This document shows, piece by piece, positions 2,755 to 60,075 of a DNA stretch of 64,000 bases. The DNA is from a virus. Taxonomy: Duplodnaviria; Heunggongvirae; Uroviricota; Caudoviricetes. A model generated the notes under the pieces. It saw nothing but the letters and a program-made list of their open reading frames with translations, ran no database searches and was not told the origin of the DNA. The position numbers were made by a program, and so were the translations under genes. Position 1 is the first letter of the stretch, and the number at the start of each line of letters is the position of its first letter. Where the stretch lies: the IMG/VR virus record IMGVR_UViG_2648501802_000002; one strand, written 5' to 3'.

Positions 2755-3036
2755 TCACATCCAGCCACGAAGTTGATGCTCAACAGCAACCACGTATTCA
2801 TCGAATAATGACGATATTTGCGAATCATTAATGATGCGCACGTTTACAAAATATCCGTCTTCCTTAACACATACCGGTTCGCCATCTTCAGTCAGTTCTC
2901 CGGTTTCTTTGTACACGTTACCTATCACGTCAATAAGAATATCATCCTGCATCGACTCGTCATCATAATAGCCAGTGCTATCCATAAAGGCCGAAAAGTC
3001 GGCCCTGTCGGCAAATTTGAGTGTTAAATCTTTCAT
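2755..3036 (-). CDS. Hypothetical protein, 93 aa, between the two tail-fibre genes
   Basis: ORF abuts stf; acidic; no family recognised. Confidence 0.35.
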   Translation of the reverse strand: MKDLTLKFADRADFSAFMDSTGYYDDESMQDDILIDVIGNVYKETGELTEDGEPVCVKEDGYFVNVRIINDSQISSLFDEYVVAVEHQLRGWM

Positions 3037-5411
3037 TAGATTGACTCCCCCACCTGAGCATCAGTCAATGCCTTGTGCCATATTCTGAAATTCCTGACAT
3101 GACCAAATAAATGACGTAACCCGGCTGTAGTCTGGCCTCCAATACGGATAATTGCGGTGTTCTGAATACAGGACCATGTGGTTTTTGTTTCGCTGGATAT
3201 ATGCCCGTTACTTACTGAGCACGTAGACTGCTCTGACTTTACACGCATCCCCATAACCATTTTTTCAAGCGATGCGTTTTCGTTTACCCGTCTGTTAGCT
3301 CCTCCAATATCGCAATAAGGAAATCCGTCGTAATCTGTTGAACGACCGAAGCCAAGAATAATAGCCGCTCCGGTTTGATGACCGCCGGTATCAAAAACAC
3401 GTGGCGCTGCATTTGGCGTTTTATACCAGTTCTTATGTACCTCACAAAGAACCGTAAAAGGAAGATTATAAAGATTATTCTTAATTGGAACTGTAACTAT
3501 ATCGCTTGCGCGGGTCGCCGCCGTCGCTCCTGATATAATAAAAGATGATACACAAGGCCCATCTTCTACTTGTGGGGTGGCCAGATAAATATAGTCACCA
3601 GATACGGTTGCCCCGCTCTGCTTAGGAGAATACTGTATCTGAGAGCCTATTTTTAGCTCCCCATCAATTGCCTGAATTGTTGCCTCTGCAAAAATCCATC
3701 CGGTAGCTTCGTCCTTTCTGACTCTCGCTGTAATCCTTGAGGCAGCACCGCCTGTCATATTAATTTCAAGCGTTTGTGTATCAATATACGCATCACCAAG
3801 AAAAGTTGTTGCGCTACCGTCATATTTATCAAACCGGATACGCAACCTTACCTGCAGTTCTGTTTTAAAACGACATGAGGTTGTCACGTGTTTATTATCG
3901 CCTGAGACATCAACTGACTTTGTTGCAGCAATTGATGCCATATTAATGGCTGAGGTTTGCCCAATCAGAGAATCGTTGCAGACAAACTTTCCATAGGTAA
4001 AACCAAAATTATCCGTCCCTGTTTCGGGCACATCCATATTTGAAGATCGCCCCCAACTGGCAGGGCTTTCCGAATTGAGCATGTAGTTTGTTCTTTGCCC
4101 CTCAATAAGCAGGCCATCACGTTCAAATCGTGGCTCGTCAATGGCAGCCTCTGTCAGCACACCAGATTTGTTAATATAGGTTGCTTTCGATGCACGTTTA
4201 AACTTAACAATCTTGTCGCCAGGCATCGTTATTTCATCGTCACCAATAACAATTTTTTTATATGACGGCGAAAAGCCCGTAATCATATCCAGCGAATCGT
4301 TAAATGGTATCCACACATCAGGCAGCGGCTGTAAGACATATTTATACGGCTCCGCAGCCTGGCTTGCGTACTCTCTGGCTGCATCTTCGCTTGCTTTAGC
4401 TGCCGTCTGGCTTGCTGCCGATGCTTTCGCTGAGTTCGCAGCCGCTGTTTCGCTCACCTTTGCGTTGGTTTCACTGGTTTTTGCTGCTTTTTGACTGTTA
4501 GCTGATGCAGTGGCAGAAGCAGCCGCCGCGCTTGCAGAACTGGCTGCGGCACTCTCGCTTTGAGCCGCTGCATCCTGACTGCTTTTCGCCGCAGTTTCAC
4601 TGGCTTTGGCATTCGTTTCACTGGTCTTCGCTGCCGTCTGGCTGGACTTTGCGTTAGTTTCACTCGTCTTCGCAGCTTTCTGGCTGTTAGCCGTAGCAGT
4701 TGCTGATCCAGCTGCTGAAGTCGCAGAACCGGCTGCCGCGCTCTCGCTTTGGGCTGCTGCAACCTGGCTGTTTTTTGCCGCAGTTTCACTGGCTTTGGCA
4801 TTCGTTTCGCTGGTCTTCGCTGCCGTCTGGCTGGACTTTGCGTTGGTTTCGCTCGTCTTTGCGGCTGTCTCGCTATTTTTCGCGTTGGTTTCTGATTTTT
4901 TAGCTGCTGTTGCGGAGTTTGCCGATGCAGTCTGCGAGGCCGCTGCCGCCTGTGCGCTGTTAGCTGCATTCGTTTCTGAGGTTTTCGCCGCGTTCTTCGA
5001 TGATGCCGCTGCAGTTTCGGATTTCTTTGCCGCCGCTGCGCTCTGAGAGGCGGCTTCAGCGTTGCGTGCCGCTTCTTCCACCATTTCCTCAAAACGACGC
5101 AATGCCTCCGGCATGACATCATCTTCCGTCATGGCACCGAGAAAATCATTCAGCGTACCTGGTCTGGAACCTTCATAGACGGTAATGGTCCCGGCATGTG
5201 AAGGCGGAAAACCTTCAACCAGCAGGGTGACGCTGTACTGACCATACTCAACATCCATGCTGTAACGCCCGGCTTCATCCGGATTTTCAGAGGCCACCGT
5301 GTTCACCAGTACCGTGGTGCTGTTACGCTTTGCCTTCAGTTGAATAGTGCAGTTCTGTATTGGTTTTCCCGCACCATCTTTCAGCACACCTGAGATTTTT
5401 ACTGCTGCCAT
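3036..5411 (-). CDS. stf: Side tail fibre protein (lambda Stf-like)
   Basis: N-terminus MAAVKISGVLKDGAGKPIQNCTIQLKAKRNSTTV... matches lambda Stf; likely ATG at 5411 with GGAG 5 nt upstream (ORF-track GTG at 5417). Confidence 0.85.
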   Translation of the reverse strand: MAAVKISGVLKDGAGKPIQNCTIQLKAKRNSTTVLVNTVASENPDEAGRYSMDVEYGQYSVTLLVEGFPPSHAGTITVYEGSRPGTLNDFLGAMTEDDVMPEALRRFEEMVEEAARNAEAASQSAAAAKKSETAAASSKNAAKTSETNAANSAQAAAASQTASANSATAAKKSETNAKNSETAAKTSETNAKSSQTAAKTSETNAKASETAAKNSQVAAAQSESAAAGSATSAAGSATATANSQKAAKTSETNAKSSQTAAKTSETNAKASETAAKSSQDAAAQSESAAASSASAAAASATASANSQKAAKTSETNAKVSETAAANSAKASAASQTAAKASEDAAREYASQAAEPYKYVLQPLPDVWIPFNDSLDMITGFSPSYKKIVIGDDEITMPGDKIVKFKRASKATYINKSGVLTEAAIDEPRFERDGLLIEGQRTNYMLNSESPASWGRSSNMDVPETGTDNFGFTYGKFVCNDSLIGQTSAINMASIAATKSVDVSGDNKHVTTSCRFKTELQVRLRIRFDKYDGSATTFLGDAYIDTQTLEINMTGGAASRITARVRKDEATGWIFAEATIQAIDGELKIGSQIQYSPKQSGATVSGDYIYLATPQVEDGPCVSSFIISGATAATRASDIVTVPIKNNLYNLPFTVLCEVHKNWYKTPNAAPRVFDTGGHQTGAAIILGFGRSTDYDGFPYCDIGGANRRVNENASLEKMVMGMRVKSEQSTCSVSNGHISSETKTTWSCIQNTAIIRIGGQTTAGLRHLFGHVRNFRIWHKALTDAQVGESI
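4430..5000 (-). repeat. In-frame tandem repeats inside stf (about 160-bp unit, about 3 copies) encoding Ala/Ser/Thr-rich AAKTSETNAKSSQTAAK... units
   Basis: Repeated protein blocks ANSQKAAKTSETNAKSSQTAAKTSETNAKASETAAK; boundaries approximate. Confidence 0.5.
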
Positions 5412-9409: not shown

Positions 9410-9513
9410 ATTCTGCGACCGGGTTTAGCAGCCTGAATGATTGTGCGGACAGCCGCAGATATCCGATATTGCGGTATTTTTGTGTCCGTAAAACCGCGTT
9501 ACGCCCAAATTAT

Positions 9514-9590
9514 GGTGGGGCGTGATGGGGAGGCTTCGGCCTGCTGGTTTCACAATCGCCAGTCTGCTAACCCCGTCACGTCCTGCCACC
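9514..9590 (+). ncRNA. c4: Candidate c4-type antisense RNA (immI)
   Basis: 77-nt element closed by GGTGG...CCACC; contains cacaatc and ctgctaac complementary to gattgtg/gtttagcag copies upstream (9423-9445) and at the icd RBS (9592-9632). Confidence 0.45.
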
Positions 9591-9640
9591 TGTTTAGCAG
9601 CGGGTAGCAGGTTGTTAAACCTGATTGTGAGGCCGTAACT

Positions 9641-14492: not shown

Positions 14493-14674
14493 TACACCCG
14501 CTGCGGTGTGCTTGGGGCTATCAGCTTCAGGTATTACCCGAAAAGCAGATAGAAGAAAGCCCCAGTAAACATTATGCGTCCCGCACAACGCTTAACATTA
14601 ACCGGGGCCATACCTATGCTTAGCGTACTTAGATTAATCCTCTCCTCTGTCAAGGAGCAAGGAATTTTTTACTG

Positions 14675-15271
14675 CTATGCCGCCTTTCCAGTTATGGATT
14701 CTGCGACAAGAACAACCCCATGCTTACTTCGATCCGGATGTTCACTCCATATCTCGGATTCAGGAATACTTTCCCCGTCATAGCAAACACGTTCGCCATC
14801 AAATGGGTAATACTGAGCAGTATCGGTGTCCAGGATAAAAACTTTTAGTTCGGAAGAACGACGAGCGATGTGCTGCCAAAGAGCTTTTCCACCTTCGTAT
14901 TGCTCATTATCACTGAGCAAAACAACACCAGCTTTTGAGGCTACGGTTTCGTAAACAAAAGTGGCTAAACCGACATCCCGGACGATTCCATCAACCACGA
15001 TACCTTCAATCTGGGCAACATCGCTATCCTCCCAGAACTTCCTTACCAGTACGCCTTCAAGCTGCGGGCGACGTTGAAGTTCAAGAGTAGCGACAACCTT
15101 ATGCCGCATATCACCATCGATAACAGAAGGCGCAGCCTCTATTACAGCTGCAAATGGGGTTTTGGAATCCCATATAACCTGGTAAAGCACACCCTGGATG
15201 GTAACGCCGTCCAGGATCGAAAATCGACGAGCGACAGTACCCGGGGAGTACGACATTGGAATCACAGCCAT
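14675..15271 (-). CDS. Hypothetical protein
   Basis: ATG at 15271 with AAGGGGGA RBS; no family recognised. Confidence 0.45.
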   Translation of the reverse strand: MAVIPMSYSPGTVARRFSILDGVTIQGVLYQVIWDSKTPFAAVIEAAPSVIDGDMRHKVVATLELQRRPQLEGVLVRKFWEDSDVAQIEGIVVDGIVRDVGLATFVYETVASKAGVVLLSDNEQYEGGKALWQHIARRSSELKVFILDTDTAQYYPFDGERVCYDGESIPESEIWSEHPDRSKHGVVLVAESITGKAA

Positions 15272-17405: not shown

Positions 17406-18995
17406 TTACTTAATAAGCAGCGGTACGCCCTGGATACGACGGGCTACGCCAGTCGGGCAGCAGGCCCAGACTACTTCCCATTTATCGAATTCCGCCTGCG
17501 TAACTTTCAGCACATACGGTTCTGTACCGTCAGCATCAGGATCACGAGGAGCCACCAGAGCGCCGGAGGCGACAAAGCGATCTAAAAGTTTGGTCATCCC
17601 TTTAGTCAGGCCAGCCGCAGTAATACCGTCCGGGCTATGCTTCATCTGGCGGGCTAACTGGACAAAGAAACGGCTGATTGCATTCATCAGGGATGGGACG
17701 TGCTGGAAGTGCAGATAGTTATCCTGCGTGCAGCAAGTTAAAGCATCGTCGATGATCATCTGGCCAGAGGTGCCAACAGATACTTTATTGAGACGGCCCT
17801 TGACCATTGCTTCTTCGTCCGGGGTATCTTCCGGATACAGCGGTTGAATTGACGCACGAGCAATGACGGCACGTTCTTCACCAGCCGGTGAGTAATGCCA
17901 ACCGCCGACATCAGAGTTTTTCTTGACGCCACGAGCTTTCGCCGCATACGCCACGCCAGACAGACCAAAGACCACACGGGATTGGGTCCATTTGTCTTTG
18001 CAGGAGAACGGGTAGTGATAGACAGAACAGCTTACATAATCGGTACCAAGTAAACCGGTATCCTCAACAGCTGGTAGTGCTTCTGCGTACGTTAATGTCG
18101 GTTTGACATCAAAGAAGCCATCAATCAGGCGATCAGAACAGATATTACCTAACGCGGTGATCGCCGCATTGTCATAGCAACCCAGGCCGAGAACAGCGGT
18201 GTACATGTACGGCGCATTGTTCAGCACCTTAACCGCACGCAGGTAGGCTTCGGTGGAGATTTTCGACTGATCGCCGTTGGTACCGCCAGTGAACGCCAGT
18301 GATTTTTTATTTGTTACTTTCGCGGTCGAAATCAGCTCTTCATTTACAACCGCGCGCAGATATTTAGAACGGGCTTCCAGAGCCGTAGGCAGATAACACA
18401 AGCGGCCCATGTCATCTTTCGCTTCTTCCGCCAAAGACACAGTGTGTGTCTCCAGGGTCGTTACCACACCGAGCGAAGTCGTCTGGGTCAGTTTTAAGAG
18501 GAAGCGTTCATTACCTGCGCTGTCCGCTGTTGCCGTTTCGATGGTTAACTCACGGGTAGGTGAAATACACGGATCACCATCATCAACGTAGATAGCAAAG
18601 GCTTCGCCGCTATCAAGTTCAATTTCAGAACCGTATGGCAACGCACTGTAAGCTGGTTCGCCTGATTCATCGAACATAATAATCGGGAACTTCGCATCAT
18701 CCGGAACAGCACGAACAACATAACCAGACGTTTGCTGAATAGCTTCGTACACATGACGAATTGGTTCGAACTGTGAGCCGGAAGACGGCTTCAGCGGTTC
18801 GCCGAGAACATCTTCGTAATTGGACTCAGTAACCGCCAGAACAGTAAACGGCTTGCCACGCGCAAATACGCCAATACCAGCCCACAAGCTGCTATTTAAT
18901 GCAACACCGGTAGATAACGTCGCATCGGCATTGATCGGGCTAACCGCGACGCCGGATGCATTACCTAATGACTGTTGAATTGAATATTGAGACAT
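17406..18995 (-). CDS. Contractile tail sheath protein
   Basis: C-terminal sheath-family motifs (YSPAGEERAVIARAS..., GRLNKVSVGTSGQMIIDDALT). Confidence 0.7.
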   Translation of the reverse strand: MSQYSIQQSLGNASGVAVSPINADATLSTGVALNSSLWAGIGVFARGKPFTVLAVTESNYEDVLGEPLKPSSGSQFEPIRHVYEAIQQTSGYVVRAVPDDAKFPIIMFDESGEPAYSALPYGSEIELDSGEAFAIYVDDGDPCISPTRELTIETATADSAGNERFLLKLTQTTSLGVVTTLETHTVSLAEEAKDDMGRLCYLPTALEARSKYLRAVVNEELISTAKVTNKKSLAFTGGTNGDQSKISTEAYLRAVKVLNNAPYMYTAVLGLGCYDNAAITALGNICSDRLIDGFFDVKPTLTYAEALPAVEDTGLLGTDYVSCSVYHYPFSCKDKWTQSRVVFGLSGVAYAAKARGVKKNSDVGGWHYSPAGEERAVIARASIQPLYPEDTPDEEAMVKGRLNKVSVGTSGQMIIDDALTCCTQDNYLHFQHVPSLMNAISRFFVQLARQMKHSPDGITAAGLTKGMTKLLDRFVASGALVAPRDPDADGTEPYVLKVTQAEFDKWEVVWACCPTGVARRIQGVPLLIK

Positions 18996-32100: not shown

Positions 32101-32442
32101 GAGTTTGTATGTGGTGATTTTGCTGCGGTGATTGAAGCTGCCGGAGAAGGAGATGTCATCTTTTGCGATCCGCCGTATGAACCGCTCCCAAATACAGAGG
32201 GATTCACGAACTATTCCGGTCATGACTTTAAGTTTGAAGAGCAAAAACGCCTGGTGTCTCTGTTGACGGATGCTCATCGCCGAGGTGCAAAGGTTCTAAT
32301 TACTAACAGTGGCGCGCCAAATATCAGAGAGCTTTATCATGACAGTGGCTTCAGAGTGGAACCTCTTTTTGCCAGACGTTCTGTGTCTTGTAAGGGGGAT
32401 ACTCGAGGTGTAGCTCATGACGTTTTAGGTATATTGCTCTAA
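29155..32442 (+). CDS. dmt: Bifunctional DNA methyltransferase Dmt (N-terminal Dcm-like C5 domain interrupted by an intein; C-terminal Dam-like N6-adenine domain)
   Basis: C5 motifs: GGTP|CQAFSIAG (IV, split by intein), ENVPGVL (VI), QRRRR (VIII), GNSMAIPV (X); Dam motifs FKWAGGK and DPPY; GTG start with GGAGAGG RBS. Confidence 0.85.
29386..30408 (+). mobile_element. Intein (341 aa) with LAGLIDADG homing endonuclease, inserted before the catalytic Cys of MTase motif IV
   Basis: Block [14 protein letters not shown]...GDYV; block B TTNDHPF; LAGLIDADG motifs [11 protein letters not shown] and [10 protein letters not shown]; blocks [23 protein letters not shown] then +1 Cys. Confidence 0.9.
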
Positions 32443-32449
32443 TAAATTT
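32433..32449 (+). promoter_or_regulatory. C1 operator (perfect consensus) overlapping dmt stop
   Basis: attgctctaataaattt 17/17; TAATAT -10-like element follows. Confidence 0.7.
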
Positions 32450-32828
32450 ATTAGTGTAATATCGCCTCAATGAATCGTGATTTATAGAGCGATTTAGCTG
32501 TTAGCCGCGACAGGCGCGGCGGCAAGTATGGCGGGGTAGTGACTCCTTCCCCATCATGACGCCGAGTTGCCAGGTTGACCATACGCCTAAGTGGCAACAC
32601 CGAAGTGCGTTACGAGCTTCCAGTTTGCCCATCTTCGGGTGGGCGTTTTTTTCAGGGTTTTCGTCATGGTTAGCGACTTTGCGGCGGTTTAGAAACTGAC
32701 CATTAAAGTAAATGCAAACGATGATCTGATGATGGTAGCGGCCTAAGAAGCCAGACGCCACGGGGTATGAGTCGTCCCCCGTCAAAAAATCGACCGCAGA
32801 GTGTCCCCGTCTGTGTATTAGGGAACGG

Positions 32829-32909
32829 GGAGGCACAACAGGTAAGGGCGCTGGTTCGATTAACCAGATGAGCGAGAAGGGGCCATCTTTTTGGTCAGCG
32901 TCCTTACCT
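32829..32909 (+). other. Structured hairpin element, copy 1
   Basis: Long stem aacaggtaagg/ccttacctgtt enclosing about 55 nt with internal ctggttcgattaaccag hairpin. Confidence 0.4.
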
Positions 32910-33118
32910 GTTACGTCCTTTTTCATTCGGCGTAACAGCAATTGCTTTTAGCAATTTAGGAATAACGTCTTGCTACGGGTATATCCCGTCATGCTGAAGG
33001 CGCTAATCACGCTGGAAGCCAGGGTTATGCATCCCCTGTTACCGAATTGCAGCCAGGGCGCGGTGCGCCGAAAAGCATACGGAGGTGGAAGCCCTCGCCG
33101 GAGACGTACCCGGCAAGT

Positions 33119-33194
33119 GATGGTGTAGCTCAGCGGTTAGAGCGGTTGACTGTTAATCAACGGGTCGATGGTTCAAATCCATCCACCATCGCCA
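33119..33194 (+). tRNA. tRNA-Asn (anticodon GTT)
   Basis: Cloverleaf: acceptor GATGGTG/CACCATC, anticodon loop CTGTTAA, T-loop TTCAAAT, 3' CCA. Confidence 0.9.
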
Positions 33195-33196
33195 AT

Positions 33197-33272
33197 GCCG
33201 GTTTAGCTCAGTTGGTAGAGCGCCTGCCTTGTAAGCAGGATGTCAGCGGTTCGAGTCCGTTAATCGGCACCA
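33197..33272 (+). tRNA. tRNA-Thr (anticodon TGT)
   Basis: Acceptor GCCGGTT, D-arm GCTCAGTTGGTAGAGC, anticodon loop CTTGTAA, T-loop TTCGAGT, 3' CCA. Confidence 0.9.
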
Positions 33273-33275
33273 GCA

Positions 33276-33358
33276 CAACAGGTAAGGGTATTTTGCGACG
33301 TCGGAGATCGCCGAGCTTGGCAGAGGGTTCGAATCCCTACGAAGTACCCTTACCGTTG
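33276..33358 (+). other. Structured hairpin element, copy 2 (tRNA-like interior)
   Basis: Stem caacaggtaagggta/tacccttaccgttg enclosing GGTTCGAATCC T-loop-like motif; not a canonical cloverleaf. Confidence 0.4.
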
Positions 33359-33746
33359 TGAGGAAGCGCAGCTCTTTGAAGCAACCAGAAGATAAGCATC
33401 TGGCTTCACAACATAAACCGCAGGAACGACCAATAAACGGTAGTCCGTATGGAGAACACCCCGTTGAGGAAGAGGCCTGGCCGGAACCGTAACCGGCACT
33501 ACAACGTTGAGAACACTGGCGTAACGGGGTCATATCCCAATCTATGAATAAATGTTGCGTTGCCGCGTGACAACCAGTGTTCTCAACATTGTGGTGAATG
33601 CGTGTTGCTGGCGCGCAAGTCCGCCCGATGGCAACGAGGCGGCGTAGTAAATATCGATGCCTCAGTCATCAAGCGCACTGACCGGCCTTATGGGCTATGA
33701 AAAAAAGAGGCGCAGTCGGAGATCAGCACCGACCACCACAATCACT

Positions 33747-33833
33747 GGAGAGTAGGGAGCATGGTGCTCAAGCGGTCTTGAAAGCCGTCCCGTTGCGCAA
33801 GCGATGATGGTTCGATTCCATTACTCTCCGCCA
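33747..33833 (+). tRNA. Type-II tRNA-like gene, putative tRNA-Ser (anticodon TGA), non-canonical D-arm
   Basis: Perfect 7-bp acceptor GGAGAGT/ACTCTCC, discriminator G plus CCA, T-arm GATGG-TTCGATT-CCATT, anticodon loop CTTGAAA, 17-nt variable arm; D-loop only about 5 nt. Confidence 0.5.
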
Positions 33834-34096
33834 TCGCAACGTTAAGAGTATTTGGCTAATTAAGCGAATGCCGGAAGCAGAACCGGATCACCAAATGCGT
33901 ACAGGCGTCATCGCCGCTCAGTCAGCCAAATGCTCTTACCATTGCGGTGAATGCGGCTAAGCGCACGCGGGGAAATGGTTATATCAGTCCATTCATTTCT
34001 CCTTGTTTCCCCGTCCACGGTGGATAACCAGCCAAAGGACACCGGGAGGCACCCGGCACCGCAACCTTATTTCCCAACCAGTAATGAGGTTAATAA

Positions 34097-34522
34097 ATGC
34101 TCGGCATTCTCAAAAAGAAATTCCGCAAAGCGGCTGGCGGAGTCAAGAAGATGGAAAACCGTGATGCGGTGGAAGCGACCGTCTGGGGCGCATATTCCAT
34201 TGCATACTCTGACGGCACCTGCGATGCGAAAGAAATTGCAGTATTGGAAAAAACCATTGCAGCACTTCCTGCCTTTGCGCCCTTCTCCGGTGAAATTGCC
34301 CAGATGAGCGCCAATATTCGCGCTCAATATGAAGCCTCGCCGCGCCGAGCTAATGCCCAGGCTTTACGTGAGCTGGCTGATGTGTCCGGGACTAATGATG
34401 CGGTAGATGTTCTGTGCCTATGCATTGATATTGCTGACCAGGATGGCATTGGGGCTGAAGAGCAGGAGCAATTGAAGAAAATTGCCCAGGCTCTTCAATT
34501 GCCACTGGAACAGTATGTCTGA
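34097..34522 (+). CDS. tciA: TerB-like protein (P1 TciA-like)
   Basis: 141 aa with TerB-like repeats; GAGG RBS. Confidence 0.55.
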   Translation: MLGILKKKFRKAAGGVKKMENRDAVEATVWGAYSIAYSDGTCDAKEIAVLEKTIAALPAFAPFSGEIAQMSANIRAQYEASPRRANAQALRELADVSGTNDAVDVLCLCIDIADQDGIGAEEQEQLKKIAQALQLPLEQYV

Positions 34523-34686
34523 TGGTTATAAAAGCACGTTTAATTCTGGCTTTGGTCTTTCTCGTGCTATCTGTGCTGGTGGATTTCACCAGCACAATCC
34601 TGTCAGTTTTATCGGACGGGGCGTTGGTGGCAGTAGCTGTAACATTGGTATGGCCGATATTTAAAACAGTCTCGAAGGATCAGTGA
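34522..34686 (+). CDS. Small membrane protein, 54 aa, translationally coupled (TGATG) to tciA
   Basis: MVIKARLILALVFLVLSVLVDF...; start overlaps tciA stop. Confidence 0.4.
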   Translation: MVIKARLILALVFLVLSVLVDFTSTILSVLSDGALVAVAVTLVWPIFKTVSKDQ

Positions 34687-34793
34687 TGGGTTTCTGGGAT
34701 TTTGCAGATAAGTATCCAATTGTTCTCATTATCATTGTTGCCATAGTTGTAGGCGGTATTGTTAGCGCCATTGAAGCACTTAAGAAACAGTAA
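34686..34793 (+). CDS. Small membrane peptide, 35 aa, coupled to previous ORF
   Basis: MGFWDFADKYPIVLIIIVAIVVGGIVSAIEALKKQ; TGATG overlap. Confidence 0.35.
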   Translation: MGFWDFADKYPIVLIIIVAIVVGGIVSAIEALKKQ

Positions 34794-34796
34794 TCC

Positions 34797-34872
34797 GGCC
34801 CTTTAGCTCAGTGGTTAGAGCTGGCGACTCATAATCGCACGGTCACCGGTTCAAGTCCGGTAGGGGCCACCA
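34797..34872 (+). tRNA. tRNA-Ile2 (anticodon CAT, ileX-like)
   Basis: Near-identical architecture to E. coli tRNA-Ile2 (GGCCC(C)TTAGCTCAGTGGTTAGAGC...CTCATAA...), 3' CCA. Confidence 0.85.
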
Positions 34873-35153
34873 TATTTGGTTGTAACACGGCGTCTGGCAC
34901 ATGCGTCGTTAGCGGTCTGGTGACGTTAAAGGGGTTACCTTTTCCCCTAGCTCAGGCAACAAACCAGGTAGCCGGAATGTGCAAGCCCCGTTCATAGCGT
35001 CGGACTGCGGATTCACCATCTTGGCGATTCGGTGTGACAGCCGGGAAGAGTCCGGCGAATTAATCCTGATTTTCTGGTGATGACTCATATCGTTAGGAGT
35101 GATTTGAGTATGCCGATTATATCTGACATTCAGCACGCCTGGGTGGAGTGCTA

Positions 35154-36518
35154 ATGTCTGCATCCCCTCTTGAATCCATGCCAAATTCCCTTAGTGCAGA
35201 ACAAGCTGTACTTGGTGGCTTAATGCTTGATAACTGCCGCTGGGATGAAGTGGCAGATCGTATAGTTGCTGATGATTTTTATACCAATGCTCATCGTGAA
35301 ATTTTCAGTGAGATGGAGAGGTTATTAAGTCATGGCAAACCGATTGATTTGATAACACTTGCTGAAGCACTTGAACAGAACGGTAAATTAGAACGCGCCG
35401 GTGGTTTTGCGTACCTTGCGGAGATGTCAAAGAACACGCCCAGCGCGGCAAATATTTGTGCTTATGCGGATATCGTTCGTGAACGCGCGGTTGTTCGTGA
35501 AATGATTTCCGTCGCAAATGAAATAGCTGAAGCTGGATATGCGCAGGATGGCCGGGGCAGCAATGAATTGCTGGGTATGGCTGAACGCCGCGTTTTTGAA
35601 ATAGCTGAAAAACGACAAAAGAGCGGTAGTGGTCCAAAAGATATCGCCAGCATTCTCGATGCAACGGTATCTCGCATAGAAGAGTTGTTTCAGCGACCGC
35701 ATGATGGTGTAACGGGACTTGATACCGGATTTACCGATCTCAATAAGAAGACGGCAGGGCTTCAGTCGTCCGATCTCATCATTGTCGCCGCCCGCCCATC
35801 TATGGGGAAGACCACGTTTGCGATGAATCTCGTCGAAAATGCCGCAGTTCGTAACGATAAGCCCGTATTGGTTTTTAGCCTTGAGATGCCGAGCCACCAG
35901 CTGATGATGCGCTCACTGGCTTCTCTTGCACGCGTTGATCAGACTCGTATTCGAACAGGGCAACTTAACGACGAGGATTGGGCGCGGGTTTCTGGCGCAA
36001 TGGGTATTCTGTTGGACAAGCAGAATATTTTTATTGATGACTCAAGCGCCCTGACGCCGACAGAGCTACGTTCCCGCGCTCGTCGTGTTTATAAAGAAAA
36101 TGGTGGTTTGAGCATGATTATGATCGACTACCTGCAACTTATGCGCGTCCCGGAGCTGCAAGATAACCGAACGCTGGAAATTGCCGAGATTTCTCGCTCA
36201 CTGAAGGCGTTGGCGAAGGAATTACAAGTACCGGTGGTGGCATTGTCACAACTTAATCGATCGCTTGAACAGCGTGCGGACAAACGACCGGTAAATTCAG
36301 ATTTACGTGAATCAGGAGCAATTGAGCAGGACGCAGACCTGATCATGTTTTTGTATCGCGACGAAGTTTATCACCAGGATAGCGAAATGAAGGGCATTGC
36401 CGAGGTAATTATCGGAAAGCAACGAAATGGCCCAATTGGCACGGTGAGATTGGCTTTTAACGGCCAATACTCACGGTTTGATAACTATGCTGGTGCTGAC
36501 TGGCAAGAGGATTATTAA
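35154..36518 (+). CDS. ban: Replicative DNA helicase (DnaB analogue Ban)
   Basis: DnaB family: Walker A ARPSMGKTTFAMN, full-length collinearity; ATG 35154 with GGAG RBS. Confidence 0.9.
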   Translation: MSASPLESMPNSLSAEQAVLGGLMLDNCRWDEVADRIVADDFYTNAHREIFSEMERLLSHGKPIDLITLAEALEQNGKLERAGGFAYLAEMSKNTPSAANICAYADIVRERAVVREMISVANEIAEAGYAQDGRGSNELLGMAERRVFEIAEKRQKSGSGPKDIASILDATVSRIEELFQRPHDGVTGLDTGFTDLNKKTAGLQSSDLIIVAARPSMGKTTFAMNLVENAAVRNDKPVLVFSLEMPSHQLMMRSLASLARVDQTRIRTGQLNDEDWARVSGAMGILLDKQNIFIDDSSALTPTELRSRARRVYKENGGLSMIMIDYLQLMRVPELQDNRTLEIAEISRSLKALAKELQVPVVALSQLNRSLEQRADKRPVNSDLRESGAIEQDADLIMFLYRDEVYHQDSEMKGIAEVIIGKQRNGPIGTVRLAFNGQYSRFDNYAGADWQEDY

Positions 36519-59786: not shown

Positions 59787-59917
59787 TGTTTTTTAACTGC
59801 CGATGTTACATTGAGCCTGACCTCTTGCGCCTTGAGGCATTTTCGGTTTATGCTTATCAGGCACCTCAGTAAAACGGGTGCCGGGATTGAGACCCCGGAT
59901 AATGCAAAAGGCGACAC

Positions 59918-59941
59918 AGACGCCAAAAGCGTCTTTTTTTG
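59918..59941 (+). terminator. Rho-independent terminator after pacB
   Basis: agacgc-caaaa-gcgtct hairpin plus T7. Confidence 0.7.
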
Positions 59942-59974: not shown

Positions 59975-60075
59975 AGCTCAGAGATCAATGGTAGTGCTGG
60001 CTGGGCTGCCGAAAGGCAGGCCGGTTCCCTTTTGCGCCGGTAGTCTCAACCCAGTCAGTGCTACCGCCATTGAGA
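59975..60075 (+). ncRNA. Possible second c4-type antisense RNA (divergent sequence)
   Basis: Long-range pairing 59985-59999 with 60055-60071; caatgg complementary to ccattg at the icd-2 RBS. Confidence 0.3.

Follow-up and report, generated by a model that had tools for sequence, protein, structure and literature searches.

The untranslated leader of the ban operon in a P1-like phage or plasmid-prophage contains four paralogous RNA stem-loops, here called E1 to E4, which lie on the + strand and belong to a family of long stalk hairpins found in several phage lineages. The DNA analysed is a 64,000-nucleotide (nt) stretch of IMG/VR virus record IMGVR_UViG_2648501802_000002, referred to as the window at its full length. 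Each stalk is 19–26 bp long, with a conserved base CACAAC, an optional bulged A, GGUAAG or GUUGAG, and a 3′ arm ending in GUUGUG, while the tops are 40–80 nt long, variable and freely exchangeable. Conservation, covariation, sense-strand selection and a fixed position relative to tRNA 3′ ends are all shown for the stalks, which stand outside every curated RNA family. The preferred reading here, with a probability of roughly 40%, is that they act as RNase III-type double-stranded signals at which a precursor of several RNAs is processed; we infer both the nuclease and the fate of the products. E1 also closes a module (32657–32830) which, judged from its sequence, has the architecture of the mRNA-like half of transfer-messenger RNA (tmRNA).

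Stalk hairpins in the window and in other phages

The 16-mer GCACAACAGGTAAGGG occurs exactly twice in the window, at 32833–32848 and 33273–33288, and in both places forms the 5′ arm of a long hairpin, E1 and E2 respectively (Table 1). The E1 arms (32837–32853/32896–32912) are 17 nt long with 94% complementarity and a spacing of 42 nt. The E2 stem (33274–33360) is built from 6 bp (CACAAC/GUUGUG), a bulged A and about 15 bp more. RNA folding gives –39 kcal/mol (z –4.8) for E1 and –42 kcal/mol (z –6.2) for E2, and none of 200 shuffles folded as well. E3 and E4 are of the same kind, E4 having a lower stem of about 26 bp with a conserved 3x3 internal loop. The 5′ stalk sequences read CACAAC-A-GGUAAGGG in E1 and E2, CUACAAC-G-UUGAGAAC in E3 and CGCAAC-G-UUAAGAGU in E4. 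Stems of at least 17 bp are rare, with just seven such hairpins in the window; E1, E3 and E4 are three of these, all within 32.8–33.9 kb (the bulged E2 is uncounted), and two more are C4 antisense RNAs recognised by Rfam. An Rfam scan of 32300–35200 that covered ribozyme, C4, YrlA, tRNA and tmRNA models left E1–E4 without a match even at E up to 10. No Rfam family describes the stalk hairpins or the tmRNA-like module, nor does any paper found in the searchable literature.

Relatives of the family occur in phage Cyrano and in viral contigs of 30–110 kb that share a tRNA-Asn/tRNA-Ser arrangement, in rV5-like phages (after tRNA-Ser), in several siphoviruses, in the Ackermannviridae phage phiEa2809 and in lambda. 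The arms detected in 55 distinct family hairpins are 16–29 nt long, often just part of the stalk. Among plasmids, 740 records contain the segment 32650–33365, and 517 of them cover at least 80% of it. The K-12 prophages DLP12 and Qin were searched for stalk hairpins, and none is present in them. In lambda, a family hairpin CACAACAGGTAAGAGCATTG...CAGTGCTCTTTCCGTTGTG (J02459, 44786–44861) directly follows a T run ~200 nt downstream of Q, and precedes a stretch of 64 nt that shares 97% identity with the interior of E4; J02459 has no annotation there. The T run is presumably the tR′ (6S RNA) terminator. Processing sites in the lambda pR′ late leader, reportedly described by Hyman and Honigman in 1986, may concern this copy.

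The stems show strong covariation. Among 24 distinct stems from P1-like phages and Cyrano-like contigs of ~100–110 kb, compared with their interiors removed, 94.5% of cells pair, against 34–51% in slid-register controls. Changes on both sides occur at 14 of the 21 pairs, with 73 double-change cells compared with 21.6 in shuffles. The covariation score is 0.466 vs. 0.191, a value that 0 of 500 shuffles reach; shuffles likewise never match the stems on four of five measures, and do so in 2 of 500 cases on the fifth (further standard pair types).

The strand on which this structure is selected can be read from wobble pairs. The 5′ arm was aligned to the reverse complement of the 3′ arm, a procedure blind to wobble, and the transition mismatches were then classified. 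Over all transition mismatches between arms, G·U pairs fall on the tRNA-sense strand in 63 cases and on the other strand in 16. When only context-distinct events are counted the ratio is 42 sense to 10 antisense (binomial p about 9e-6, the events not being fully independent). This bias indicates selection for the structure at the RNA level, on the + strand. Sense-strand G·U is likewise used in the pseudoknots of the tmRNA-like module.

The hairpins are also placed to the nucleotide. A survey listing whatever follows each tRNA in all fetched loci found that each run ends in a tRNA whose CCA is followed, 0 to 2 nt on, by a family hairpin; in one group the hairpin shares the CA of CCA. After tRNA-Thr a hairpin is present in all P1-like phages, with at least three unrelated tops. 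After tRNA-Ser(UGA) it is found in P1-like phages, Cyrano-like contigs and rV5, and after tRNA-Asn in Cyrano-like contigs.

No U-tract was found after the stalk hairpins, nor any terminator or promoter at them; the missing U-tract indicates that they are not terminators. Intrinsic termination was accordingly set aside, the sole terminator-like site within 32300–34900 being at 32623–32652, outside E1–E4. A long-range stalk, in which the E1 3′ arm pairs with the E2 5′ arm and encloses tRNA-Asn and tRNA-Thr as in rRNA stalks, is possible in the window because the arms are identical. It was not adopted as a general arrangement because the tRNA-flanking hairpins of Cyrano-like contigs have differing stems.

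The tops behave differently from the stalks. That of E2 contains a canonical T-arm, GAGGG-TTCGAAT-CCCT, with 81% identity to the T-arm region of tRNA-Asn. It is conserved in P1 and D6, and P7 and Ro157c2YLVW carry a shorter, unrelated top instead, giving at least three E2 types: the 44-nt T-arm type (P1, D6, window), the 29-nt unrelated type (P7, Ro157c2YLVW) and a third type (loci L007/L051). The E2 T-arm is genuine but dispensable. It stacks on an uninterrupted stalk of ~21 bp whose 3′ strand goes on as ...GUACCCUUACCGUUGUG without a CCA end. An RNase P-type minihelix was set aside, as there is no unpaired NCCA and the helix under the T-arm is about 20 bp, not 7. Neither E1 nor E2 forms a tRNA cloverleaf: ARAGORN gives only Asn, Thr, Ser and Met(CAT) in the window, and the Rfam tRNA model has no match on 32833–32915 or 33273–33360 at E up to 10. 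Canonical T-arms recur in the tops of several lineages, namely E2 of the window, loci L059, L076, L045 and L053, and phiEa2809. In E1, GGTTCGATT corresponds to GGTGTGATT in P1, P7, D6 and Ro157c2YLVW; as its T-loop look-alike is absent from these four relatives, it is a coincidence specific to the window.

When P1, P7, D6, Ro157c2YLVW and the window are aligned, hairpin tops and inter-hairpin segments are seen to be exchanged as blocks. P1 lacks tRNA-Ser and its E4-like hairpin differs, while E4 of the window has a 5′ arm of the E3 type and a 3′ arm of the E2 type. Related phages cease aligning at or near hairpin arms, with divergence beginning 10–15 nt beyond the stems. The arms thus also behave as recombination breakpoints, while the wobble bias shows that selection acts primarily on the RNA.

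The sequence-only reading that preceded this analysis had described two hairpins starting at 32829 and 33276. Both exist and share the exact 16-mer, but their true extents are 32833–32915 and 33273–33360, so that the starts were off by 3–4 nt, and they enclose 42–48 nt rather than about 55 nt. The T-loop attributed to both is canonical in E2, and in E1 is the look-alike absent from the four relatives. Of the two, E2 abuts the CCA of tRNA-Thr and E1 abuts no tRNA. The non-coding leader, put at 675 bp, extends to about 1.65 kb and holds the further hairpins E3 and E4. Its unusual length is largely accounted for by these hairpins, the tmRNA-like module and the dicF-like region.

A tmRNA-like module closed by E1

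Weak Rfam matches to tmRNA_permuted (24.1 bits vs. a threshold of 47) and beta_tmRNA (14.1 vs. 84) at 32616–32784 led to the segment 32714–32746 being read as a tag frame. This open reading frame (ORF) has neither a start codon nor a Shine-Dalgarno sequence and is directly preceded by an A-rich run. The 5′ part of the module resembles, by eye, the 5′ end of E. coli tmRNA. A pattern scan of viral contigs followed by filtering yielded 72 loci with 32 distinct units that share the frame. All 31 distinct nucleotide versions consist of 10 codons and a stop (29 TAA, 1 TAG, 1 TGA), and their synonymous variation includes all four Ala codons, TAT/TAC, GAA/GAG and CTG/TTG. The consensus is AN[DE][DEN]xx[LMK][AVM][AV]A, with ANDNQYLAVA, ANDDVVLMAA, ANEEVYLAVA and ANDNEFKVAA among the tags found elsewhere; the SsrA tag of E. 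coli is ANDENYALAA.

The helices of the module are supported in the same way as the stalks. Across 29 sequences and five helices, including the two pseudoknots, 88.1% of cells pair compared with 35–47% in slid controls. Double-change cells number 79 vs. 24.7 in shuffles and the covariation score is 0.371 vs. 0.173, with 0 of 500 shuffles as high. Two subgroups are partly misaligned, and the covariation result holds regardless. Most of the 32 units continue, after the tag and pseudoknots, with a long hairpin that is usually a family stalk and that occupies the position taken in tmRNA by helix 2, the T-arm and the acceptor; in several lineages the hairpin at that position bears a T-arm stacked on the stalk. 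The module, carried by P1, by phages of the lambda type and by many others of enterobacteria, is present in 265 phage records, those of Klebsiella (85), Salmonella (73) and Escherichia (63) being followed by Serratia, Shigella, Cronobacter, Erwinia and others. A –35/–10-like pair was read by eye just before the module in three lineages: ST1UNAM/SusanneMuster, Cyrano and related large contigs. In Salmonella phage ST1UNAM the module is followed by a terminator-like hairpin (by eye), with no tRNA detected by ARAGORN.

In Erwinia phage phiEa2809 (locus 3025–3123), the top of a stalk hairpin ~430 nt downstream of the tag ORF ANDNEFKVAA holds GCGGGTTCAACTCC, which presumably equals the enterobacterial tmRNA T-arm. 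This tmRNA-type T-arm lies in the second family hairpin, ~350 nt beyond the one at the E1 position.

Searches for a complete tmRNA were negative. At default settings ARAGORN reports no tmRNA in the window or in 155 loci, and a canonical tmRNA was set aside, as 'permuted tmRNA' calls appear only at ≤80% of the default threshold, alongside obvious false positives. The Rfam tmRNA models give nothing at the gathering threshold, the phiEa2809 match (33.5 bits) being local. Neither the window nor the surroundings of any tag module yielded a T-arm combined with a strand complementary to GUUUUCG and NCCA; the acceptor pattern search returned seven matches in a few loci, each ending in an acceptor strand plus NCCA, and none beside a tag module. 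When the E. coli ssrA sequence was aligned locally, the tag region was matched in one of four lineages (Cyrano), and the others gave matches of 10–15 nt, some outside the tag. An exhaustive 2014 survey of RefSeq phages found ssrA in mycobacteriophages, phage G and DS6A only, the DS6A gene comprising just the tRNA-like domain (PMC4131195). No later description of a phage tmRNA-like RNA was found in the literature searched.

The tag ORF bears the signature of translated sequence, yet no domain was found that would bring it to the ribosome. One possibility, which we regard as speculative and rather doubtful, is that the leader encodes a widespread and so far unrecognised phage tmRNA derivative in which CACAAC stalks (E1 and T-arm-bearing hairpins of the E2 type) have taken the place of the tRNA-like domain or give rise to it, with stalk processing creating the functional ends. 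Phages from P1 to the Ackermannviridae would then hijack or re-programme ribosome rescue, and variant degron tagging of stalled host or phage proteins would be one possible outcome.

A proposed role as processing signals and competing explanations

RNase III of E. coli cuts stems of ~20 bp or more with little sequence preference, for instance in rRNA stalks, T7 early mRNA and the T4 tRNA cluster. The stalks, counted at 17–26 bp in E1–E4 and at about two helical turns, fall into this substrate size class and are far longer than a simple exonuclease block needs. They stand at boundaries between RNAs, with E1 closing the tag/pseudoknot module, E2 at the CCA of tRNA-Thr and E4 at the CCA of tRNA-Ser. 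The exchange of tops while stalks are kept is as expected if the stalk is the functional part. The dicF-like region of the leader is homologous to the dicBF scaffold of the Qin prophage, which RNase III cuts experimentally and whose precursor requires RNase III and RNase E (PMC10448788). Taken together, these points make punctuation of the RNase III type the most likely role. A host nuclease of this kind would cut within the stalks and so split the transcript into the tmRNA-like RNA, the pair of tRNAs, tRNA-Ser and, downstream, the tciA-ban mRNA. Each cut might leave a short 3′ trailer on the upstream tRNA, which would then be trimmed exonucleolytically, and the hairpin tops would be released as small RNAs. 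The earlier proposal of a processing signal and/or small stable RNA is plausible in this light, as it fits the covariation, the sense-strand G·U excess and the CCA-adjacent position.

Several observations weigh against RNase III-type processing. E1 and E3 are not preceded by a tRNA, and E1 ends 203 nt upstream of tRNA-Asn. RNase III needs neither the conserved stalk base nor the recurrent bulged A and U·U mismatch, and these features could mark a specific protein-binding site or even block cleavage. The canonical T-arms in several tops suggest that the tops may be functional in themselves. Since E. coli can mature its tRNA operons with just RNase E and RNase P, a dedicated double-stranded signal is not strictly needed. 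No RNA-end mapping of this region was found for P1, P7 or lambda in the searchable literature. RNase III-type processing does not account for the bulged A, the U·U mismatch or the recurrent T-arms, and on their account three other explanations retain some probability: autonomous small RNAs (C4-like or tRNA-mimic), a remodelled tmRNA domain and a passive insulator.

The hairpins may instead be small stable RNAs that are excised and act in trans through their tops, the stalk providing stability and ends, with the T-arm versions mimicking the tRNA elbow and binding proteins that recognise tRNA or tmRNA. Their length of 75–120 nt and ends paired in a long stem recall the two C4 RNAs of the window, their tops vary between close relatives as C4 loops presumably do between P1 and P7, and canonical T-arms recur in several lineages. 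This is nonetheless a rather unlikely reading, since wholesale replacement of the top leaves the element intact, there is no 3′ CCA or RNase P-type end, and the Rfam C4, YrlA and tRNA models miss all four hairpins. No top has more than 12 nt of complementarity to any other part of the window, which is about chance level; an antisense regulator acting in cis was set aside, no target of more than 12 nt being present in the window.

A degenerate or remodelled tRNA-like domain of a phage tmRNA derivative, with E1 (and T-arm relatives such as E2) as a closed-off acceptor/T-arm domain working together with the tag/pseudoknot module, is unlikely. It would account for the long hairpin after the tag and two pseudoknots in most units, for the T-arm stacked directly on the stalk in several lineages and for the phiEa2809 T-arm, which presumably matches that of enterobacterial tmRNA and gives the local Rfam match; the coding-type conservation of the tag also calls for some tRNA-like entry domain. 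However, the stalk has no free 3′ CCA, no G3·U70 pair was seen, and E1 tops in P1, P7, D6 and lambda lack a T-arm. Identical hairpins also follow ordinary tRNAs far from any tag module, and neither default ARAGORN nor Rfam at gathering thresholds calls a tmRNA.

It is fairly improbable that the hairpins are passive insulators, which would prevent misfolding of the tRNAs and non-coding RNAs, block 3′ exonucleases and deny loading of Rho so that transcription reaches tciA and ban. The 1.65 kb of untranslated RNA before the first ORF, the mostly structured nature of the leader, as read from sequence and partial folds, and the lack of any sigma-70 promoter-like site inside it are all consistent with such a role. 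It leaves unexplained the conserved base sequence, the fixed CCA register and stems twice the needed length, and a stable hairpin at the CCA would hinder exonucleolytic maturation of the tRNA 3′ end unless it were cut.

Least probable of all is that the hairpins act as DNA-level recombination modules (attC-like, miniature inverted-repeat transposable element (MITE)-like or homology patches) that shuffle tRNA and non-coding RNA cassettes between phages, for although the replacements among P1, P7, D6, Ro157c2YLVW and the window are cassette-like with edges at or near arms, E4 is hybrid-like, the same hairpins sit in unrelated backbones (P1-likes, lambda, Cyrano-like contigs, rV5-likes, siphoviruses, Ackermannviridae) and GCACAAC/GTTGTGA is one or two positions off the attC core RYYYAAC/GTTRRRY, with AAC/GTT conserved, the 42:10 excess of sense-strand G·U shows selection on RNA and recombination at repeats can be a by-product rather than a function. 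As for an integron attC, no cassette junction was found at G|TT of R′, divergence among P1, P7 and the window starting 10–15 nt downstream of the hairpin. The same strand asymmetry argues against a MITE or a REP-type repeat, and against the miniature mobile element offered by the sequence-only reading: a search for further copies of the unit found none dispersed in the 64 kb, and no target-site duplications were seen at the flanks. The stems were found to be conserved and covarying across several phage lineages when related genomes were compared, as that reading had proposed to check.

The leader in context and comparison with known systems

The nearest relatives of the window are P7, D6, SJ46 and P1, at 92–97% identity in this region. 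According to the P1 and P7 records, dmt ends at 32442, its stop overlapped by a divalent C1 operator and the P1ban/P2ban promoters, and the leader of the C1-repressed ban operon runs from 32443 onward. The P1 annotation gives the order 'dicF-like region', trnA (Asn), trnT (Thr), tciA-C, trnI, ban. Homology to P1 tciA puts the start of the first ORF regarded as a gene downstream of dmt at 34097, which makes the untranslated stretch about 1.65 kb (32443–34096). With no sigma-70 promoter-like site found inside it, the genes downstream appear to rely on read-through. Window positions 32505–32600 are homologous to the stretch upstream of dicF in K-12 Qin. The P7/D6 version of the STnc100-like leader is homologous to the Qin dicF-dicB spacer (K-12 Qin locus 18455–18580), and in the window this homology is limited to the first ~27 nt.

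Table 1. Features of the ban-operon leader and adjoining sequence (window coordinates)
Feature	Position	Strand	Basis or remark
C1 operator / Pban promoter region, leader start	32433–32462	+	Identical to P1 Obanab / P1ban-P2ban annotation in NC_005856; inverted repeat; ATTGCTCTAATAAATTT at 32433–32449
'dicF-like region' (P1 name), with intrinsic-terminator-like hairpin at its end (32626–32652)	32557–32652	+	Coordinates carried over from P1 misc_feature
Module 5′ part: GUUUUCG-UCAUGGUUAGCGAC-UUUGCGG, then A-rich AAAGUAAAU right before resume codon	32657–32713	+	Conserved in 32 distinct units
Start-codon-less tag frame, GCA AAC GAT GAT CTG ATG ATG GTA GCG GCC TAA = ANDDLMMVAA-stop	32714–32746	+	
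Helix-5-like hairpin with stop codon (32732–32760) and two H-type pseudoknots (about 32761–32794, 32797–32830)	32732–32830	+	
E1, stalk hairpin closing tmRNA-like module	32833–32915	+	Folding, repeat search, alignment to relatives
Leader hairpin GCCGG-AGACGUAC-CCGGC, just before tRNA-Asn	33097–33114	+	Recurrent motif
tRNA-Asn(GUU) 33119–33194 and tRNA-Thr(UGU) 33197–33272	33119–33272	+	ARAGORN; Rfam tRNA 74.5 and 72.9 bits
E2, stalk hairpin, first base directly after tRNA-Thr CCA; top = small hairpin + canonical T-arm (33323–33338)	33273–33360	+	
Small hairpin GAAGCAACCAGA-AGAUAAGCA-UCUGGCUUC after E2-type hairpins	33378–33407	+	Same sequence after post-tRNA-Asn hairpin in ~100–110-kb Cyrano-like contigs
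Second leader hairpin GCCGG-AACCGUAA-CCGGC, directly before E3	33480–33497	+	By eye paralogous to 33097–33114
E3, stalk hairpin, 23-nt arms, 54 nt between	33497–33596	+	z = –5.9; homologues in 27 viral contigs
Third leader hairpin GUCGG-AGAUCAGCA-CCGAC, then CACCACAAUCAC, then tRNA-Ser	33715–33733	+	
tRNA-Ser(UGA)	33747–33833	+	ARAGORN; about 84% identity to tRNA-Ser region of rV5-like phages
E4, stalk hairpin beginning at tRNA-Ser CCA	33832–33949	+	z about –6; interior 97% identical to lambda 44866–44929
STnc100-like structured leader before tciA/terB-like ORF (34097–34522)	33943–34063	+	Rfam RF02076 37.8 bits, under gathering score 47
tRNA-Met/Ile2(CAU)	34797–34872		ARAGORN

A smaller leader hairpin with the motif G[CT]CGGA...CCG[GA]C recurs at 33097, 33480 and 33715, and also before tRNAs or hairpins in other phages. 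It lies 4–16 nt ahead of a tRNA or directly adjoins a stalk hairpin, as at 33480–33497, which runs into E3. At 33715–33733 and before tRNAs of other phages it is followed by CACCACAA, and at 33097 and 33480 by CAAGUG / CACUACAAC. Further copies of the motif lie in late leaders of the lambda type and inside the E2 and E4 tops.

Several neighbouring or related elements were seen along the way. P7 (AF503408) carries, at about 2770–2860 of its locus, the same tRNA-Ser(UGA) as D6 and the window, detected by ARAGORN and lacking a GenBank annotation. The P1 ORF 'plp' (putative lipoprotein) lies antisense to the tRNA-Thr 3′ end, E2 and E3 (window 33243–33533, – strand; P1 locus 2296–2673); it encodes 96 aa in the window vs. 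125 aa in P1, contains a 19-nt length difference in P7, where it is unannotated, and is probably not a real gene. At Rfam gathering thresholds the window contains the C4 RNAs at 59984–60071 and 9508–9593 as well as isrK and the sok antitoxin RNA, the other two positions being 59861–59939 and 14506–14679. Phage rV5 (locus 3190–3288) has an unannotated tRNA-like gene between tRNA-Ser and tRNA-Thr, called tRNA-??? with a 4-nt anticodon (atcc) by ARAGORN and named tRNA-Lys or tRNA-OTHER in other rV5-like records. In ST1UNAM (locus ~1660–1735) and locus L069 (~650–720) a conserved tRNA-like element ends the non-coding unit; it has a D-arm and a covarying T-arm, with no anticodon arm and no clear acceptor stem. 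About 17–19 records of 'Campylobacter phage' (e.g. C11, CJLB-4, A147) match rV5-like or lambda sequence closely and look mislabelled or contaminated.

Annotation usually shows a phage tRNA cluster as a row of bare tRNA genes with nothing in between. A conserved, covarying hairpin family makes up these spacers in P1, lambda relatives, Cyrano-like contigs, rV5-like phages and others, and is placed to the single nucleotide at the 3′ ends of tRNAs. Should the stalks be processing signals, they would define how these phages mature tRNAs and small RNAs from long untranslated leaders, and they also mark breakpoints of cassette exchange between unrelated phages. The tmRNA-like module, which 265 phage records and over 700 P1-type plasmids contain, adds protein-level conservation of a tag with no recognisable tRNA-like domain. 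This raises the question of whether phages encode a template for trans-translation, and one that works without an acceptor end.

Among known systems, RNase III stalks (rRNA operons, T7 R sites, the T4 tRNA cluster, Qin dicBF) come closest in layout, with stems of ~20 bp or more between functional RNAs of a polycistronic transcript, and the paralogous copies within one phage are a further likeness. The window family differs from them in its conserved base, bulged A, U·U mismatch, large variable tops and spacerless contact with CCA. The small structured RNAs species 1 and 2 of T4 (rnaC, rnaD), which are co-transcribed and co-processed with phage tRNAs, are also similar, an analogy drawn by the sequence-only reading, but are single genes as opposed to a repeated stalk family. 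C4 antisense RNA (RF01695) comes from the same phage, is of similar size, has paired ends in a long stem around variable loops and is processed from a longer operon transcript; the window has two true C4 genes, at 59984–60071 (75 bits) and 9508–9593 (69.6 bits). However, the C4 model misses E1–E4, for which no antisense target was found in the window and which have no CCA-like 3′ end and a different stalk sequence family. YrlA in its general layout combines a long terminal stem, a T-arm and a second small hairpin, as do E2 and several relatives, yet its model gives one match (25.6 bits, gathering 69) across tandem tRNAs and none on E2, and most family members have no T-arm.

The module shares with tmRNA (SsrA) a GCA resume codon after an A-rich run, a 10-codon tag, a stop codon in a hairpin and two covarying pseudoknots. 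It differs in having no acceptor stem, 3′ CCA, G3·U70 or first pseudoknot (PK1), and in a closed stalk hairpin that takes the place of the tRNA-like domain. The hairpins are far from chance, and a role in processing or as small stable RNAs is plausible for them.

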